Numbered from the stretch's first letter, positions 7,849-36,784 are shown. The stretch is DNA of 64,000 nucleotides from Betaproteobacteria bacterium (GCA_947482825.1 CANKMT010000013.1:1714-65713); one strand, 5' to 3'. The notes: generated by a model not told the origin, from the letters alone. Numbers and translations: made by a program.

Positions 7849-8373
7849 TCAGAAATCCTCCGCGCCGAATTCGTCCACGACGCGGCCTGAGCGGAGGCGC
7901 TCGAGCGCCTTCACAAGCTGGCCCAGGAGGACCAGCGCGAACAGCGTGAAGCCCGCCGGAATCGCCATCTGCGGCCACTTGAGCGGCGTCCTCAGCAACG
8001 AATTGGAGCGCATGTCGCGCGTGAAGGAGTCGCCGAGAAACTTCCAGCTCACCCAGGCCGCCACCGAAACGCACGCCAGGCCCAGGACGAGCGACGCGAT
8101 GCGGATGTATCCGGTGGTTCGCGGATCCAGCCTTTCCACGATGAACGTGATGCGGATGTGCCCTTTCTCCTGCGCGCAGTAGGCCAGGCCCAGGAAGCTC
8201 ACCGCGACCATCGCGTAACCGCCCAGCTCGTCGCTGAGGATCATCGGGTTCTTCAGCACGTAGCGCGAGACCACCTCGAGCATCGTAAGCACGACGATGG
8301 CCAGCAGCACGGCACCGGCCGCGTAGCCGGTGCCGTACGACAGCCTTTCGACGAACCGCGCGAGCCTTTGCAT
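7849..8373 (-). CDS. dctQ: TRAP transporter small permease
   Basis: Four TM helices, SRYVLKNP..SDELG, GHIRITF. Lies between dctP and dctM. Confidence 0.9.
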   Translation of the reverse strand: MQRLARFVERLSYGTGYAAGAVLLAIVVLTMLEVVSRYVLKNPMILSDELGGYAMVAVSFLGLAYCAQEKGHIRITFIVERLDPRTTGYIRIASLVLGLACVSVAAWVSWKFLGDSFTRDMRSNSLLRTPLKWPQMAIPAGFTLFALVLLGQLVKALERLRSGRVVDEFGAEDF

Positions 8374-30904: not shown

Positions 30905-32272
30905 ATGGACGCCAAGTTCCTGAACGCCACGGTCGTCACTTGTGACGACCAGCGGCGGGTCCTGCGCAACGCCGGAGTCGCTATCCAGGGAGATCGAATC
31001 AAGGCGGTCGGCCCGAGCGGCGAGATCGACGGCCTTCACACCCACCTGCCGACGATCGACGCGCGCGGCAAGGCGATCCTGCCTGGCATTGTCAACGCGC
31101 ACACCCACGTGCTGTTGCTGGCCTTGCGCGGCACGATTGAAGACATGGGCGCCGAGGCGATCTACGGCTACATGACGCCGATCTCCTTTGCGATGACGCC
31201 GACTGAGCGCGAGGCGATCTCGCTATTGGGCTGCCTCGAAGCGATCCGCTCGGGCACCACCACGCTGGTCGAGCCTTTCCGCCATGTGGTGAACTACGCA
31301 GGCGCGATGGCCGAAACCGGAATGCGCCTGTATTTCAGCGAGAACTGTGCCGATGCGCTGACCCTCAAGATCCGCTCGGGGGTCTACGAGTTCGACCAAT
31401 CCTGGGGCGAGCAGTTCCTCGAGCGCCAGCGCGAACTGATCGCGCGCTTCCACGACACCAGCGACGGCCGCGTGATGTGCCAGGTCGCGGCCCATGCCCC
31501 CGACAACTGCTCGCCCTGGATGCTGCGCCAACTGAACGACCTGCACGAAAAGCACGGCCTGCGGCGCACCGTCCACATGGCGCAGAGCCGCGGCGAGGTC
31601 GCGCAAGTCCGGCGATATGCAGACTGCACGCCGGCGCAGTATCTCGAGCGCAACGGTTGGCTCGGCCCGGATGTGGTCGGGGCGCACTGGACCTACTGCA
31701 CCCACGAAGACGTCGAATTGCTCGCAGGGCATGACGTGCACATGGCGCATTGCCCCGCCAACAGTTCGCGCCGCGGCCCGCACCAGGCGCCGGTAGCCAG
31801 GATCATGGACGCGGGTGTCAACATCGCGCTGGGTACCGACAACATGACCGAAGACATGTTCCAGGCCATGACCATCGGCAGCGTCGTGCATCGCGGCAGC
31901 CGGGGCGGCGGCATCCAGCCCCAGCCGCAGGCCCTGCTCGACGCGGCCACCCGCAACGGCGCGCATTCCCTCGGCCGGCTGGCCGATTTCGGCTCCATCG
32001 AGCCCGGCAAGAAGGCCGACCTCATGCTGATCAATCTCGACCACCCCAGTTTGCGCCCGGCAATCAACGTCGTCTCGAACATCGTTCACTACGGGCATCC
32101 GGGCGTTGTCGACTCCGTCCTGGTCGACGGGGAGTTCCTCATGCTCGGAGGCCAGGTCGTCTGCCTGGACGAGCGCGCCGTGGTTGAAAACGCCCAGGCT
32201 GCAGTCGAAAGTGCGTGGCGGCGGCTCCACAGCCAGTCGCCCGATGTCCCGCTCCCGGCCAGCCTGCGATAG
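30905..32272 (+). CDS. amidohydrolase, AtzA/GuaD/MTA-SAH deaminase-like
   Basis: PGIVNAHTH, RSGTTT, HMAQ (HxxE position), HCP, LGTD, GKKADL. Confidence 0.88.
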   Translation: MDAKFLNATVVTCDDQRRVLRNAGVAIQGDRIKAVGPSGEIDGLHTHLPTIDARGKAILPGIVNAHTHVLLLALRGTIEDMGAEAIYGYMTPISFAMTPTEREAISLLGCLEAIRSGTTTLVEPFRHVVNYAGAMAETGMRLYFSENCADALTLKIRSGVYEFDQSWGEQFLERQRELIARFHDTSDGRVMCQVAAHAPDNCSPWMLRQLNDLHEKHGLRRTVHMAQSRGEVAQVRRYADCTPAQYLERNGWLGPDVVGAHWTYCTHEDVELLAGHDVHMAHCPANSSRRGPHQAPVARIMDAGVNIALGTDNMTEDMFQAMTIGSVVHRGSRGGGIQPQPQALLDAATRNGAHSLGRLADFGSIEPGKKADLMLINLDHPSLRPAINVVSNIVHYGHPGVVDSVLVDGEFLMLGGQVVCLDERAVVENAQAAVESAWRRLHSQSPDVPLPASLR

Positions 32273-32283
32273 TCCCGCCCCCC

Positions 32284-35200
32284 ATGGCCACTCCCGACAC
32301 CCGTTTCAGGGTCCTCACGGTCGACGATTCCGAGGACATTCTCGCGTTGCTGGAAGTCACGCTGGGCAAGGACTACGACGTCAAGACCGCCACTGACGTC
32401 CGCACCGCGCTCAAGGCCGCCTTCGAAAAACCGCGTCCCGACCTGATCCTGCTGGATGTCGAGATGCCCGGATCGAGCGGTTACGACGTTTGCCGGGCGA
32501 TCAAGGCGAGCCCCGCGCTGGCCGACATCCCGTTGATCTTCCTCACCCAGCGCGACGACGCTCGCGATGTGGTGCAGGGATTCCAGCTCGGCGCGATCGA
32601 CTACTTCGCCAAGCCCATCAACCCGCCGGTGCTCCTTGCCCGCATCCGCGCGCACGTGGAACTCATCAAACGCCGCGGCCTGCAGGACCAGATCATCCGC
32701 GAACGCACCACGCAGCTGGAGCAAACCCGCCTGCAGCTCATCCGAAGGCTCGGTCGCGCAATGGAGTACCACGAGACCTCCGCGGTTGGAAACCGGGTCG
32801 TGCGTCTCGGGCACTACGCGCGGGCGCTGGCCGAAGCCAGCGGCGCGAAAACCGAGTTGTGCGACCTCATCATGAAAGCCGCTCCGCTGCACGATATCGG
32901 CAAGCTCGGCGTGCCGGCGCAGATCCTGCGCAAGGCCGAAAAGCTCACGGCCCCCGAGCACGCCCAGATGCAGCGCCACCCGGAAATCGGCGCCGAGATC
33001 ATCGGCGAACACGACGACCCCCTGCTCAAGCTCGCCCGCACGCTCGCCCTCACCCACCACGAGCGCTGGGACGGCAGCGGCTACCCCGCCGGCATCAAAG
33101 GCAACGACATCCCCTGGCCGGGGCGCGTGATGGCGGTGGTGGACGCCTTCGAGGGCATGACCGCCACGCAGTTCCACCGCGAGCCGTTGCCACTGCAGCT
33201 TGCTTTCGATGAAATCATCCGTGGTGCGGGCAAGCAGTTCGACCCGGGCATGGTCGAAGCCTTCCGCAAGTGCCTCCCGGAATTCCGCAAGATCAAGGAA
33301 ACCTACGCCGACTCCCTCGGCGACATGCTCGACCTCGATTTCTCCACGCTGGGCCCTGCTCCATCGGCCCCGGTGCCCGTCGCGGAGGCGCAGGCGGTTG
33401 CGCCGGCCGGCAGGGCGGCAACCGCGGAGCAACGCGAACTCGCCGAATCCACAGCCCTGCAGAAGATGCGCGAAGCCGACGAAGCGCGGGCGAGCCAGCT
33501 GGCCGGCGAGCAGGCGCGGATCAAGGTCGAGCGCGACCTGCTGTCCGCCGCCACCAAGGACATCTCCAGCCAGCAGGCGGCGCGCAAGCGCGCCGAATCG
33601 GCGGCCGCGCGCGAAGCGGAGGTGATCGGCCTGAACAAGCGGCGCATTGCCGAGGAAACCGCGGCGGCGCAAGCCGCCCGCGAAGCCGCCAAAGCCGAGG
33701 CCGAGGCCGCCAGCATCGCCGCGCAAGCCGAGCAGGAAAAAGCCAGCGCCCTCGCCGAGGCGGAGACCCGCCTCGCCGCGGAACAGGCCCTCGTGGCCGC
33801 CACCGAAGAGCGCAAGAAGGCGGAAGCCGCGCTTGCCGCCACCGCCGCCAATCTCGTGGCTCGCGATACCGAAGCCCTCGAAACCGCCGGCAAGCGCCTC
33901 ATCCAAGAGCGGGAGGCGAACCGCCTTGCCCAGGAGCGCATGAAGACCGAGCAGGCCGCGACGGAAATCGCCCTCAAGGCCGCCGAAGCGCAGGCCCTGC
34001 TGCTCGCCGAAACCGAAGCGCGGATCAGGGCCGAAGAAGCCCTGGCCCTGGCCGCAGAGGAAAAGCGCGAGGCCGAGGCGGCCGCAACCCAGTCGACCGA
34101 GGCGCTATTGCGAGCCGAGGCGGACGCAGCGCGCGCAGCGGAAAAGAAGCGTGCGGCCGAAGAGTCGGCGCTCGAATCAGCACAAGCCCGTGCTCGTGCC
34201 GAAGAGGCCGCGGCCCTTATGGCGGCGGAGAAGCGCACGGCGGAGGAAGCCGCCGCAAGAGCCGCCGAAGCGCAGGCTGAAGTCGAACAGCAGACCGCCC
34301 GCGCCGCCGAGCAACGGGCAACAGAAGAGGCCGCGGCCAAGGAAGCGATCGAAAAGCGCCTCGCTGCAGAGGTCGAGGCGGCGCGAAACGTAAACCTTGC
34401 GCAAGCCGCGATTGGCCGCTCGCAGGCCGTATCCGATGCGATTGCGGAGCTCAAGGCACGCGCTGCGGCCGCACGCGAGGCCGCACTCGCGGCCGCAATG
34501 AAGGCCGCCGAGGAGCGGGCGGCGGCTGAAGCGGCACGCGAACAGGCCGAACTCGAAGCCGAAAAGCTCGAGGCCGAACGGCAACACATCGCGCAGGAAG
34601 AGGCCGCGAGCGAGGCTGCACAGGAAAGAGCCGGCGCGGAAACCGCCGCGGCGCACGCTGCTGAAAAACGCGCGGCCGCCGAACACGCGAAAATGGCCGC
34701 GATGTCGCGGCGAGCCGTGAGCGAAGCCGCCGCCAAGTCAGCGCTCGAGAAGCGGCTCCTGATCGAAAACGAAGCGGCGCGCACCGCGCACGAGGTAAAG
34801 GAACTCGAGGCACGCACGCCGATACCAAAGCCATTGCCGAGTTGCAGGCCAGGATTGCGGCGGCAATCAGGGGCGCGGAGGAGCGCGCCGCGGCGGCGGT
34901 CGCACGCGAAAAGGCAAAGCTTGAAACCGACGCGCTCGAAGCTGCGAGACGACGCCTCGCCGAAGAAGAGACTGCAAGCATTGCCTCGATGGATCGCGCG
35001 CAAGCCGACGAAGCTGCGCGCAAGTCCGCGAGCGAAAGGGCGAGCGCCGAAGAGGCCGCTGCAAAAGCTGCCGAGGAGCGTGCGGAGTTCGAGGAGTCAG
35101 CACGCCAGGCGGCTCTGGAGCGCGCGCGCGCCGAGGAATCCTCACGCAGGACCGCCGAAGCCCGGATGCAGGCTGAAGAAATGGCGCGCCGGTCCGCCGA

Positions 35201-35547
35201 AGAACATGTGCAAGCTGAGGAAAGCGCACGGCAGGAAGCAGTCAAACGCGCCAAGGCCGAAGAGGCTGCAGGCCAAGCCGCCGAGTAGCGCGAGCAAGCC
35301 GAGGAAAGCGCGCGTCAACTCGCCGAGAAGCGGGTGCAATCAGAAGAAGCCGCACGCAAGTCCGCGGAAGAACGCATGCAAGTCGAAGAGGCCGCACTTC
35401 AGGTCGCCGAGGAGCGTGCCAGAGCAGAGGAAGTCGCACGCCTGGCCGCCGAAGAGCGTGCAGAAGCTGAAGAGACTGCGAATCGGAAGGCCGCCGAACG
35501 CGCCGAAGCCGAGGACGCCGCCGCAAGGGCAGCGTTTGAGCATGTGA
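32284..35547 (+). CDS. response regulator receiver + HD-GYP domain + long Ala/Glu helical stalk (as-read ORF; after about 34815 it reads off-frame)
   Basis: TVDD, LLDVEMP, AKP receiver motifs; PLHDIGK, HHERWDGSGYP HD-GYP motifs; Ala/Glu/Arg-rich region from about 33420. Confidence 0.88.
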   Translation: MATPDTRFRVLTVDDSEDILALLEVTLGKDYDVKTATDVRTALKAAFEKPRPDLILLDVEMPGSSGYDVCRAIKASPALADIPLIFLTQRDDARDVVQGFQLGAIDYFAKPINPPVLLARIRAHVELIKRRGLQDQIIRERTTQLEQTRLQLIRRLGRAMEYHETSAVGNRVVRLGHYARALAEASGAKTELCDLIMKAAPLHDIGKLGVPAQILRKAEKLTAPEHAQMQRHPEIGAEIIGEHDDPLLKLARTLALTHHERWDGSGYPAGIKGNDIPWPGRVMAVVDAFEGMTATQFHREPLPLQLAFDEIIRGAGKQFDPGMVEAFRKCLPEFRKIKETYADSLGDMLDLDFSTLGPAPSAPVPVAEAQAVAPAGRAATAEQRELAESTALQKMREADEARASQLAGEQARIKVERDLLSAATKDISSQQAARKRAESAAAREAEVIGLNKRRIAEETAAAQAAREAAKAEAEAASIAAQAEQEKASALAEAETRLAAEQALVAATEERKKAEAALAATAANLVARDTEALETAGKRLIQEREANRLAQERMKTEQAATEIALKAAEAQALLLAETEARIRAEEALALAAEEKREAEAAATQSTEALLRAEADAARAAEKKRAAEESALESAQARARAEEAAALMAAEKRTAEEAAARAAEAQAEVEQQTARAAEQRATEEAAAKEAIEKRLAAEVEAARNVNLAQAAIGRSQAVSDAIAELKARAAAAREAALAAAMKAAEERAAAEAAREQAELEAEKLEAERQHIAQEEAASEAAQERAGAETAAAHAAEKRAAAEHAKMAAMSRRAVSEAAAKSALEKRLLIENEAARTAHEVKELEARTPIPKPLPSCRPGLRRQSGARRSAPRRRSHAKRQSLKPTRSKLRDDASPKKRLQALPRWIARKPTKLRASPRAKGRAPKRPLQKLPRSVRSSRSQHARRLWSARAPRNPHAGPPKPGCRLKKWRAGPPKNMCKLRKAHGRKQSNAPRPKRLQAKPPSSASKPRKARVNSPRSGCNQKKPHASPRKNACKSKRPHFRSPRSVPEQRKSHAWPPKSVQKLKRLRIGRPPNAPKPRTPPQGQRLSM

Positions 35548-36070
35548 GCGCCGGAAAGGCCAGGTTGGTTTCGGCCGAGGAACGCGCCGCAAGCGAAGCG
35601 GCCGCGAAAGCCGCGCTAGAAAAGCGCCTCGCGAACGAGGCCGAGGCGGCGCGAGTCGCAGCTCGAGTGACCGAAGCGGACGAGCGAAGCGCGGTCCTGG
35701 CTCGCGAGAATGCCGAACTCGAGGCGCGCATCGCAGCCGAACTGGAAGCGGCCTCCGTCTCGACGGGCAAGGCAAACGCCGAGCGCACGGCCGAAGCGCT
35801 CGTGCGCGAACGCGCATCGCTAGAGGCGAAGGCCCTTGATGTGTCCCGGCAGCGCCTGGCAGAAGATCAGGCCGCGACCCGCGCGGCCGCGGACCGCGCA
35901 AAGGCCGAAGAGGATGCCGGACGCATTGCGCGCGAGGCGGCCCAGGCTTCGGCGCAAATTCTCGCAAGCGCACAGGCGCGGGTGAAAGCCGAGGAAGCAC
36001 TTGCGACCGCGACAGTGGAGCGGCTCGCGGCCGAATCGGGGGCGGTCGAAATCGGACGCGATGCAACCGC
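33420..36070 (+). repeat. 14-aa (42-nt) periodic Ala/Glu/Arg helical repeat region
   Basis: About 16 consecutive units at 34986-35657, e.g. AEERAEFEESARQA, AEARMQAEEMARRS, AEERARAEEVARLA. Same register visible upstream of the frameshift. Confidence 0.8.
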
Positions 36071-36344
36071 TGCAACCCGCGCGTCGAAAATCGGCAAACC
36101 TTCGATCCAGGCGCCTCTTGCGCCTCGTGCCCGCCATACGGGCCTGTTCGCCGTCGCAATCATTGCAGTTGCCGCCGCAGCGGCGTTCTACTTGCTCGAC
36201 AGCCAGGCGCCCCAGCCCCCTGCTCTGTCCGTCGCAGCGTCGATGGAGGCCAAACCGGTTCCCGGGATTTCCGAGGGACCGCCGCTGGAACTGCGCCTGA
36301 ATTCGGACGTGACGAAACTCGCACCGAAAGAAACCGCAAAGTAG
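34815..36344 (+). pseudogene. C-terminal continuation of the HD-GYP-stalk gene: frameshift at about 34815, in-frame TAG at 35286-35288, C-terminal TM helix
   Basis: ORFs 34842-35288 and 35334-36344 share a frame and a repeat register across the TAG. A one-base shift at GCACGC/ACGCC restores ELEARHADTKAIAELQAR. TM GLFAVAIIAVAAAAAFYLL at 36141-36197. Confidence 0.78.
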
Positions 36345-36391
36345 CACCCGGCAGCGCTTCTCGCCGCCGGCACCGTCGAACGGAGGAGAAG

Positions 36392-36784
36392 ATGACCATC
36401 ACGATGATCACTGCGGGCGTGCTCGGCCTGCTTCTGTTGTTTCTGGGCGGCTACGTCATCGCGGGGCGAGTCGCCTTCAAGATCAACCTGGGCGACGGCG
36501 GCAACGACGCGATGTAACGCCGAATGCGCGCACAGGCCAACTTCGTCGAGTACGTTCCAATGGCGCTGATCCTGATCGCGCTTTTGGAGAACGCGTCCAT
36601 CGGCCCGCACTGGTTGCTGCCCACCCTCGCCACCTTGCTGATCGTCGGACGGTTGTGGCACGCCCAGGGGTTGCTGTCGAGCTCGGGCACTTCGGCCGGG
36701 CGCTTCGCCGGCACCAACATGACCTTGATCGTGATTGTGGTCGGCTCGGTCGCCTGTCTCGGCCGTGGGGTCGGCGCCTGGTAG
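36392..36784 (+). pseudogene. MAPEG family protein with in-frame TAA
   Basis: GGAGG RBS + ATG 36392; MTITMITAGVLG...NLGDGGNDAM*RRMRAQANFVEYVP...GRLWHAQG; stop at 36515-36517. Confidence 0.82.

Follow-up and report, generated by a model that had tools for sequence, protein, structure and literature searches.

We suggest that positions 32284-36344 (+) of a 64,000-nucleotide stretch of Betaproteobacteria DNA (GCA_947482825.1 CANKMT010000013.1:1714-65713; hereafter the window, on whose plus strand all features below are numbered) hold a gene in decay that once encoded a tethered RpfG-type response regulator with a tail anchor, an overall picture to which we assign a probability of about 60%. Read through two lesions, from the ATG at 32284 to the stop codon at 36342-36344, the gene spells ~1352 residues in the order receiver domain (REC), HD-GYP domain, Pro/Ala linker, Ala/Glu/Arg helical stalk, single C-terminal transmembrane (TM) helix and short tail. 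A first-pass annotation made from the DNA alone had reached the same domain order and the same length by repairing both lesions, and that reconstruction agrees with one-frame genes in four congeneric genomes and with ~35 further long relatives; the implied product does not exist here, because the lesions are real. The copy in this genome is a pseudogene, or at best the source of an anchorless product of ~1087 residues. Its intact relatives, the tail-anchored RpfG-type response regulators of uncultured Burkholderiales, form a family that we have not found described.

The host genome is a lake-water metagenome-assembled genome (MAG) of 196 contigs, 91% complete, in which no single uninterrupted frame covers the gene; three consecutive open pieces make up the interval instead. 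The first, in frame 1 (32284..34818), encodes residues 1-845, comprising REC, HD-GYP, the linker and the first ~460 stalk residues. It reads as sensible protein through ...HEVKELEART, at ~34818, and the sequence resumes in frame 3 from ~34821 as ...ADTKAIAELQARIAA. The frameshift site (GCACGCACGCC, 34810..34822, within ...E-A-R-T-A-D-T-K...) reflects the loss of 1 nt or the gain of 2 nt, the loss being the simplest account because the orthologue of genome G017 reads EARTRADTKAIAELQ at this place. Left uncorrected, frame 1 runs out of frame for 242 residues to a stop (34819..35547), and Arg, Pro and Lys constitute 48% of this continuation (116/242). The second lesion is an amber codon, TAG, at 35286..35288 in frame 3 (context GCC GAG TAG CGC), where the repeat consensus has Glu. 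The maximal product of the locus would consist of the head, half of the stalk and the 242-residue Arg/Pro/Lys nonsense tail, with no TM helix.

Logan contigs of four independently sequenced and assembled lake-water runs (X1-X4, from two studies, 2020-2022) cover 34600-35500 with 0 differences and 0 gaps, both lesions included, and a fifth run from a third study (X5) has a 40-nt exact match across the TAG; both lesions are fixed in the sampled population. Sequencing error is ruled out by the identity of the four contigs and by the absence of DNA-level tandem repeats from the region. A misassembly joining two genes is likewise rejected, since the intact orthologues are encoded in one frame and independent contigs span the region: contiguity, which the first-pass annotation had left to be checked, stands, and the interruptions prove to be genuine rather than slips of assembly. 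It could be argued that the lesions are nevertheless artefacts of a repetitive, GC-rich region, or that they are bypassed by -1 frameshifting and amber read-through so that all 1350 residues are made; the shift is of the -1 type, the reading frame beyond it stays open and still encodes TM helix and tail motif, and the stalk carries an in-frame TAG in two different MAGs. We regard this as very improbable and largely refuted, given the identical sequence of the four runs, the absence of DNA tandem repeats and the lack of an X XXY YYZ slippery heptamer at 34800-34830; a programmed -1 frameshift would in any case leave the amber codon in place. Amber suppression or recoding is also rejected, because no CUA anticodon occurs among the 39 tRNAs of the 91%-complete genome, where the search for suppressors returned just a tRNA-Sec, and because the adjacent upstream gene ends in an ordinary TAG stop. 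The commonest stalk codons, moreover, are GAG, CAG and AAG, for which TAG is the nearest stop by mutation.

The tRNA-Sec (found with aragorn, 89964-90059 on its contig) reads UGA and indicates UGA recoding somewhere in the genome, which is irrelevant to the TAG in the stalk. The other stalk TAG lies at 8296-8298 (GCC GAC TAG GCG) in a groundwater Betaproteobacteria MAG (L032, JACPYS010000061.1), where the frame runs on for 393 residues past it and includes a normal TM helix and the tail motif; it represents either recurrent anchor loss or an assembly error in that MAG. With it, two of the six complete loci examined are interrupted. Since both lesions in the window are real, the repaired ~1350-residue protein is not made by this organism and nothing is tethered here, contrary to the earlier proposal of a tethered cyclic di-GMP (c-di-GMP) module in this genome, and pseudogene, not protein of 1350 residues, is the proper annotation here.

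The architecture itself is carried by relatives in which the gene is intact. Within the same genus, uninterrupted orthologues occur in genomes G017 (1234 residues), G011 (~1207), G012 (1145) and G014 (777), of which those of G017 and G012 begin at a Met equivalent to that of the window (MAAPDARF and MGAPENRF). The head, that is, REC plus HD-GYP, is 64-98% identical to the window within the genus when scored per 50-residue bin (mostly 86-98% for G017, 78-94% for G012 and G011). A search of 5.8 billion proteins added ~35 further long forms of 690-1380 residues, all of them from Burkholderiales or Betaproteobacteria MAGs or from metagenomes, and annotated only as 'response regulator' or 'HD domain phosphohydrolase'. 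HD-GYP is normally a C-terminal output domain, and a published census of its domain architectures is silent on any such extension beyond it (bioRxiv 10.1101/2021.11.05.467447); we found no description in the literature of a REC-HD-GYP protein with a C-terminal helical membrane tether. The RpfG-type paralogues of the same genome have 371 and 413 residues, and the view that this architecture is unusual for the RpfG family is therefore upheld. In two metagenome proteins (P0002 and P0003, 1329 and 1379 residues) the whole REC-HD-GYP head is tandemly duplicated into two near-identical heads, after which come Pro/Glu-rich acidic repeats, a helical region of reduced length, a TM helix and the tail; the double head may be genuine or may have arisen in assembly.

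The head has the composition expected of an RpfG-type regulator. REC (32311..32649, residues 10-122) matches Pfam PF00072 Response_reg with 83 bits against a cut-off of 30 and PleD REC structures with ~100 bits, and family alignments show its phosphorylation residues to be complete (D14/D15, the phospho-acceptor D58 within LLDVEMP, T88 and K110). A long helix (32623..32781, residues 114-166) connects it to the HD-GYP domain in the AlphaFold2 (AF2) model, which was built on 27 family members and in which the REC fold has a predicted local distance difference test score (pLDDT) above 90 and the HD-GYP fold is also confident. The HD-GYP domain (32779..33306, residues 166-341; Pfam HD_5 PF13487 over residues 166-321, 106 bits, above cut-off) aligns with PmGH (4mcw, E = 3e-35) and PA4781 (4r8z, E = 3e-30), and keeps the HD pair H203-D204, H232, the HH pair H258-H259, the GYP triad G266-Y267-P268 and D287, in the strings LHDIGK, RHPEIG, THHERWDGSGYP and VVDAF. 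It closes with a conserved YAD.LGDMLDLDF, after which the linker begins.

The metal site departs from the canonical pattern. Six of the eight metal ligands of PmGH (E185, H189, H221, D222, H250, H276, H277, D305) are retained, and the set is thus incomplete. Arg171 aligns with H189 and is Arg in 27 of 27 aligned family members, and the E185 column holds Ser166 but is ambiguous, since Glu164 stands two positions before it; PmGH, the canonical paralogues of the same genome and a short relative read E-T-G-x-H where all family members read E-T-S-A-V-G-N-R. In PmGH, H189 is a metal ligand and the H189A mutant is inactive; RpfG of X. campestris also has no H189 equivalent and is predicted to be binuclear (PMC4159591). 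According to Galperin and Chou, RpfG is weakly active and its Lysobacter homologue robustly active (bioRxiv 10.1101/2021.11.05.467447), and a His of the H189 type may therefore not be essential. Since the site is non-canonical, hydrolytic activity is uncertain, and we treat c-di-GMP hydrolysis as an assumption. The role in c-di-GMP signalling proposed in the first-pass annotation thus holds as far as the presence of the domain goes and is provisional as to its chemistry: catalysis by the head is possible, and a function as sensor or adaptor would be a serious alternative. Some distant long forms have degenerate heads and retain the stalk and anchor, with YD for HD and YR for HH in P0024/25, and with a gutted receiver from which the acceptor region is lost in P0037.

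The invariant Arg also defines a clade that includes proteins with no stalk. Members from L035 (~355 residues), G018 (388) and G003 (~380) end right after LDLDF. In two of these short forms, L035:5989-7077 (a Lake Erken MAG) and L025:5671-6984 (G003), YD replaces the HD dyad (LYDIGK) in addition to the His-to-Arg change, and these proteins are probably catalytically dead. Some homologues, the short forms, do end after HD-GYP; the long forms continue to the TM helix and tail. Stalk-less members imply that the head can work without the stalk, and their natural existence bears on a further account of the locus, according to which the gene is split or truncated yet still functional, yielding a soluble frame-1 regulator (REC, HD-GYP and half of the stalk) and a separately made 3' open reading frame (ORF; 35334-36344, GTG start, 336 residues: distal stalk, TM helix and tail). 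Consistent with this, the TAG in the L032 stalk would make anchor loss recurrent, the lesions are stable from the 2020 to the 2022 samples, and the head is as similar to its orthologues as described above (86-98% to G017, 78-94% to G012 and G011). We still hold it to be unlikely, since the 242-residue Arg/Pro/Lys nonsense tail of the frame-1 product is absent from every relative, the 3' ORFs showed neither a promoter-like site nor any start context that could be recognised, and two independent lesions within 470 nt are what neutral decay would lead one to expect. The loss of the distal stalk, anchor and tail to the frameshift and amber codon would leave nothing beyond a soluble head, half of the stalk and a nonsense tail, and decay of a once-tethered regulator is the account we favour.

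Between head and stalk lies a Pro/Ala linker of ~35 residues (33322..33429, residues 347 to about 382-386), which AF2 models with pLDDT 32-49 and no secondary structure, and whose identity among orthologues is low. The stalk proper (33430..36140) has ~900 residues. Counted from the last residue of DLDF up to the TM helix, its length is 928 residues, of which 34% are Ala, 18% Glu and 11% Arg, and it is free of Pro between its positions 16 and 914. The 14-residue periodicity reported in the first-pass annotation is strong, residue autocorrelation against shuffles giving z = 10.8 at lag 14, 10.9 at lag 28 and 11.8 at lag 42, and no signal at lag 7. The repeat unit is R-x-x-A-E-E-x-A-R-x-x-A-E-E, and the periodicity peaks at stalk residues 600-750, the region that holds both lesions. 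AF2 predicts uninterrupted helices at residues 383-640 and 645-843, with stalk pLDDT of 55-70 in this model; a model of the last 351 residues has long helices at 2-90, 96-158 and 161-264 (pLDDT ~90), followed by the TM helix and a disordered tail. Pairs of Arg or Lys with Glu at i+4 number 77 (z = 10.7). Neither stalk nor tail matches a known family in Pfam, NCBIfam or PDB sequences.

A hydrophobic seam is hardly detectable. The 3.5-residue hydrophobic periodicity is weak (z = 2.0), and by a crude, home-made heptad count, which is not a calibrated predictor, bulky hydrophobic residues (Leu, Ile, Val, Met, Phe) occupy a fraction of the a and d positions that is 0.1-0.3 for the majority of 35-residue windows and nowhere exceeds 0.5, and 60-70% of these positions are charged in the best register of the strongly periodic part. 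The stalk fails to qualify as a classical heptad coiled coil on this count, and it looks, from its sequence, like a charged, Ala-rich single alpha-helix (SAH) rather than a classical coiled coil. The first-pass annotation had offered a scaffold or filament as one option, and the same heptad count speaks against a classical coiled coil or filament former. In its strongest form, this option would have the intact stalk as a parallel dimeric coiled coil or cytoskeleton-like scaffold, a polar or septal platform capped by REC-HD-GYP in the manner of FrzS. HD-GYP proteins crystallise as dimers; the first ~150 stalk residues are conserved and come nearest to a heptad pattern, bulky hydrophobic residues taking as many as half of the a and d positions at residues 386-420; and the distant members P0024 and P0037 retain stalk and TM helix while their REC or HD-GYP motifs degenerate. 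There are precedents, too, in FrzS and AglZ, polar beacons in which a receiver is joined to a long coiled coil (PMC1974792, PMC9811614). Against it, the would-be core positions are charged over most of the stalk, the length and sequence of the stalk are poorly conserved, no pilus, flagellar, division or polarity genes occur in any neighbourhood examined, and no similarity to solved coiled-coil proteins was found; we therefore consider a scaffold quite unlikely.

Conservation along the stalk is uneven. Within the genus, the first ~150 residues are 57-94% identical to the window per 50-residue bin, and the remainder 30-60% identical with many indels, while stalk length ranges from ~400 to ~900 residues. 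Because the length more than doubles among congeners, the stalk would be a tether or spacer and not a ruler, and the idea that a rigid ruler holds the head far from the membrane is not sustained. At ~0.15 nm per residue, 900 residues correspond to a contour of ~130 nm. ER/K helices are reported to have a persistence length of ~15 nm, and given such a value the mean reach of the stalk would be nearer 60 nm.

The stalk leads into a TM helix (GLFAVAIIAVAAAAAFYLL, 36141..36197, residues 1286-1304), the one 19-residue window of the protein with TM-like hydropathy (Kyte-Doolittle 2.48, the next best being 1.35), which coincides with an AF2 helix at 286-305 of the last piece and is conserved in the orthologues. 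A basic PRARH precedes it, and the tail that follows (36198..36344 including the stop codon) is acidic, disordered in the AF2 model and Pro-rich, with 8 Pro in 48 residues: a Pro-rich spacer and then, at 36252-36329, a motif identified in the family alignment (KPVPGISEGPPLELRLNSDVTKLAPK). The consensus of the TM-plus-tail motif is P-x-P-x-(I/L)-S-E-G-x-P-L-x-L-R-L-D. The protein has the features of a tail-anchored inner-membrane protein, namely a single C-terminal TM helix, no N-terminal signal or TM segment and a basic cytoplasmic side. Since REC is a cytoplasmic domain, and by the positive-inside rule, its topology would be N-in/C-out, with head and stalk predicted to be cytoplasmic and the tail periplasmic. 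When a TM-plus-tail profile (8 sequences) was run against 301 genomes from 142 genera of the order, the family alone was matched; reuse of the module on other proteins is rejected, the other hits scoring ~20 bits and lying almost all over the TM/Pro-rich part alone.

We propose that in the intact form a phosphorylatable REC, an HD-GYP domain, a flexible linker of ~35 residues, a helix of 400-900 residues, a TM helix and a tail with a ~20-residue motif would work as follows. An unlinked histidine kinase would phosphorylate the receiver and, by established rules for such proteins, phosphorylation would switch the HD-GYP head, either toward c-di-GMP hydrolysis or toward the binding of c-di-GMP or of a partner protein, the latter being entertained because of the altered metal site and likened to partner binding by Xanthomonas RpfG. 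The stalk would serve as a semi-flexible, single-helix-like tether stabilised by Arg-to-Glu ion pairs at i+4, and would confine the head to a shell some tens of nm, at most ~130 nm, from the inner membrane. More speculatively, c-di-GMP might be depleted, or partners captured, locally within this membrane-proximal shell, and the periplasmic motif might pin the anchor to an envelope partner; the polar or local signalling put forward in the first-pass annotation is likewise speculative. The specific mechanism of a local phosphodiesterase is tentative, and even if the overall picture holds we would put its odds clearly below even. More doubtful still, if attractive, is the fuller proposal that the intact relatives represent a new class of tail-anchored response regulators, with the longest SAH-type tether yet seen in a bacterium (60-130 nm contour), an evolvable length that sets the depth of the zone, a motif that pins the anchor and an HD-GYP subtype defined by Arg.

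Several points weigh against parts of this picture. HD-GYP enzymes are usually dimers, which would favour a paired stalk, and a monomer AF2 model together with a crude heptad count cannot separate a single helix from a dimeric coiled coil. The stalk is also less charged (36%) and richer in Ala (34%) than textbook ER/K single helices. The Lysobacter RpfG, without the same His, is reported to be active, and by analogy the head may be a normal phosphodiesterase. The predicted periplasmic side of the tail depends entirely on the positive-inside rule. As for the lesions, assembled contigs were compared, and contigs drop rare variants, so that a minor intact allele is possible; the four runs X1-X4, furthermore, may all sample one lake population.

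A bacterium may have dozens of c-di-GMP enzymes, and what prevents cross-talk among them is debated. Local signalling is the favoured answer, and sequence rarely reveals the physical devices that enforce such locality. If the proposal is true, tether length would determine how far from the membrane the head can remove c-di-GMP or capture partners, and the natural variation from ~400 to ~900 residues among close relatives would let one test directly whether this reach is important. The invariant replacement of the first metal-binding His by Arg would mark a mechanistically distinct HD-GYP subtype, and it bears on the division of HD-GYP proteins into enzymes and sensors. Bacteria may also have very long helices of the SAH type, for which the stalk is a candidate. 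This significance is tempered by the fact that the copy here is dead, that the family is confined to uncultured Burkholderiales and that no tie to a cellular process has emerged.

An amidohydrolase gene lies directly upstream in the window, in G017 and in G011, where the flanks were examined, and the regulator ATG follows the amidohydrolase TAG stop after 11 nt (TCCCGCCCCCC, 32270-32286), a spacing also found in G017. This spacing suggests that the regulator may be co-transcribed with an upstream ureohydrolase-amidohydrolase pair; the regulator start has no recognisable Shine-Dalgarno sequence. A promoter scan found nothing. Downstream, G017 has a 296-residue gene of the arginase/formiminoglutamase family (L018:5662-6552) between the regulator and a MAPEG-like gene; this gene is absent from the window, where ~180 nt (36345-36525) separate the regulator from the MAPEG-like gene. 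The neighbourhood is not conserved more widely, three distant members sitting among unrelated metabolic genes. As the first-pass annotation had observed for the window, there is no cognate kinase nearby, and no HisKA domain occurs on the 72-kb contig. In the sister genus, at L024:3893-8924 (minus strand), the 388-residue stalk-less member of G018 lies 83 nt upstream of a same-strand gene for a 1260-residue multi-PAS histidine kinase, the sole candidate cognate kinase seen for the clade, which is not conserved at other loci.

The closest known systems are those of the RpfG family (X. campestris RpfG and Thermotoga TM0186, with PmGH and PA4781), to which the head is homologous: REC precedes HD-GYP by way of a long helix, and the HD, H, HH, D and GYP motifs are kept. 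X. campestris RpfG and the present head share the lack of an H189 equivalent, with Phe at this position in RpfG and an invariant Arg here, and the missing His therefore does not speak against a place in the family. RpfG proteins, in contrast, are soluble, of 350-420 residues, and end with HD-GYP, and the present family adds to this the linker, the helix of 400-900 residues, the TM helix and the putative periplasmic tail; the window gene accordingly has the receiver and HD-GYP of a two-domain soluble RpfG and ~1000 residues more, TM helix included, beyond HD-GYP. An adjacent kinase of the RpfC type is absent beside it.

The stalk finds its nearest likeness in the SAH (ER/K) spacers of myosin VI and X and in the Ala/Lys/Glu-rich helical domain II of TolA. 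The resemblance lies in a long Pro-free helix with dense opposite-charge pairs from i to i+4 and no hydrophobic seam, and in the presumed task of spacing a functional domain away from its membrane anchor. Known SAH domains range from tens to ~200 residues, and the present stalk is far longer (up to ~900 residues), contains more Ala and less charge, and uses Arg as its main base. TolA has the opposite topology, the anchor being C-terminal and the helix cytoplasmic here, and no homology to TolA or to the SAH spacers is detectable. As anchored proteins go, ElaB and YqjD are small tail-anchored proteins of ~100 residues that bind ribosomes and have almost no periplasmic tail; they share with the present family a single TM helix near the C-terminus and a protein bulk that is helical and cytoplasmic, and differ from it in that the family has a cytoplasmic part of 1300 residues and a conserved tail motif; the two are not homologous.

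In concept, the proposed regulator resembles anchored positional regulators such as TipF of Caulobacter, with its TM segment, coiled coil and degenerate EAL domain, and the polar scaffolds FimV and HubP, which likewise combine an anchor and an extended region with a c-di-GMP-type domain for spatially restricted signalling; these have EAL or LysM/TPR domains, an N-terminal anchor and no receiver, and are not homologous to it. Similar in layout are FrzS and AglZ of Myxococcus xanthus, in which an N-terminal receiver is followed, as here, by a very long helical C-terminal region (PMC1974792, PMC9811614). FrzS has an atypical, non-phosphorylatable receiver, a canonical coiled coil and neither enzymatic domain nor anchor, whereas the present family has a canonical receiver, an HD-GYP domain, a helix without a heptad core and a C-terminus in the membrane, and is unrelated to it in sequence outside REC. 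By analogy with these proteins, position in the cell is likely to be the point of a design that places a receiver at the end of so long a helix.

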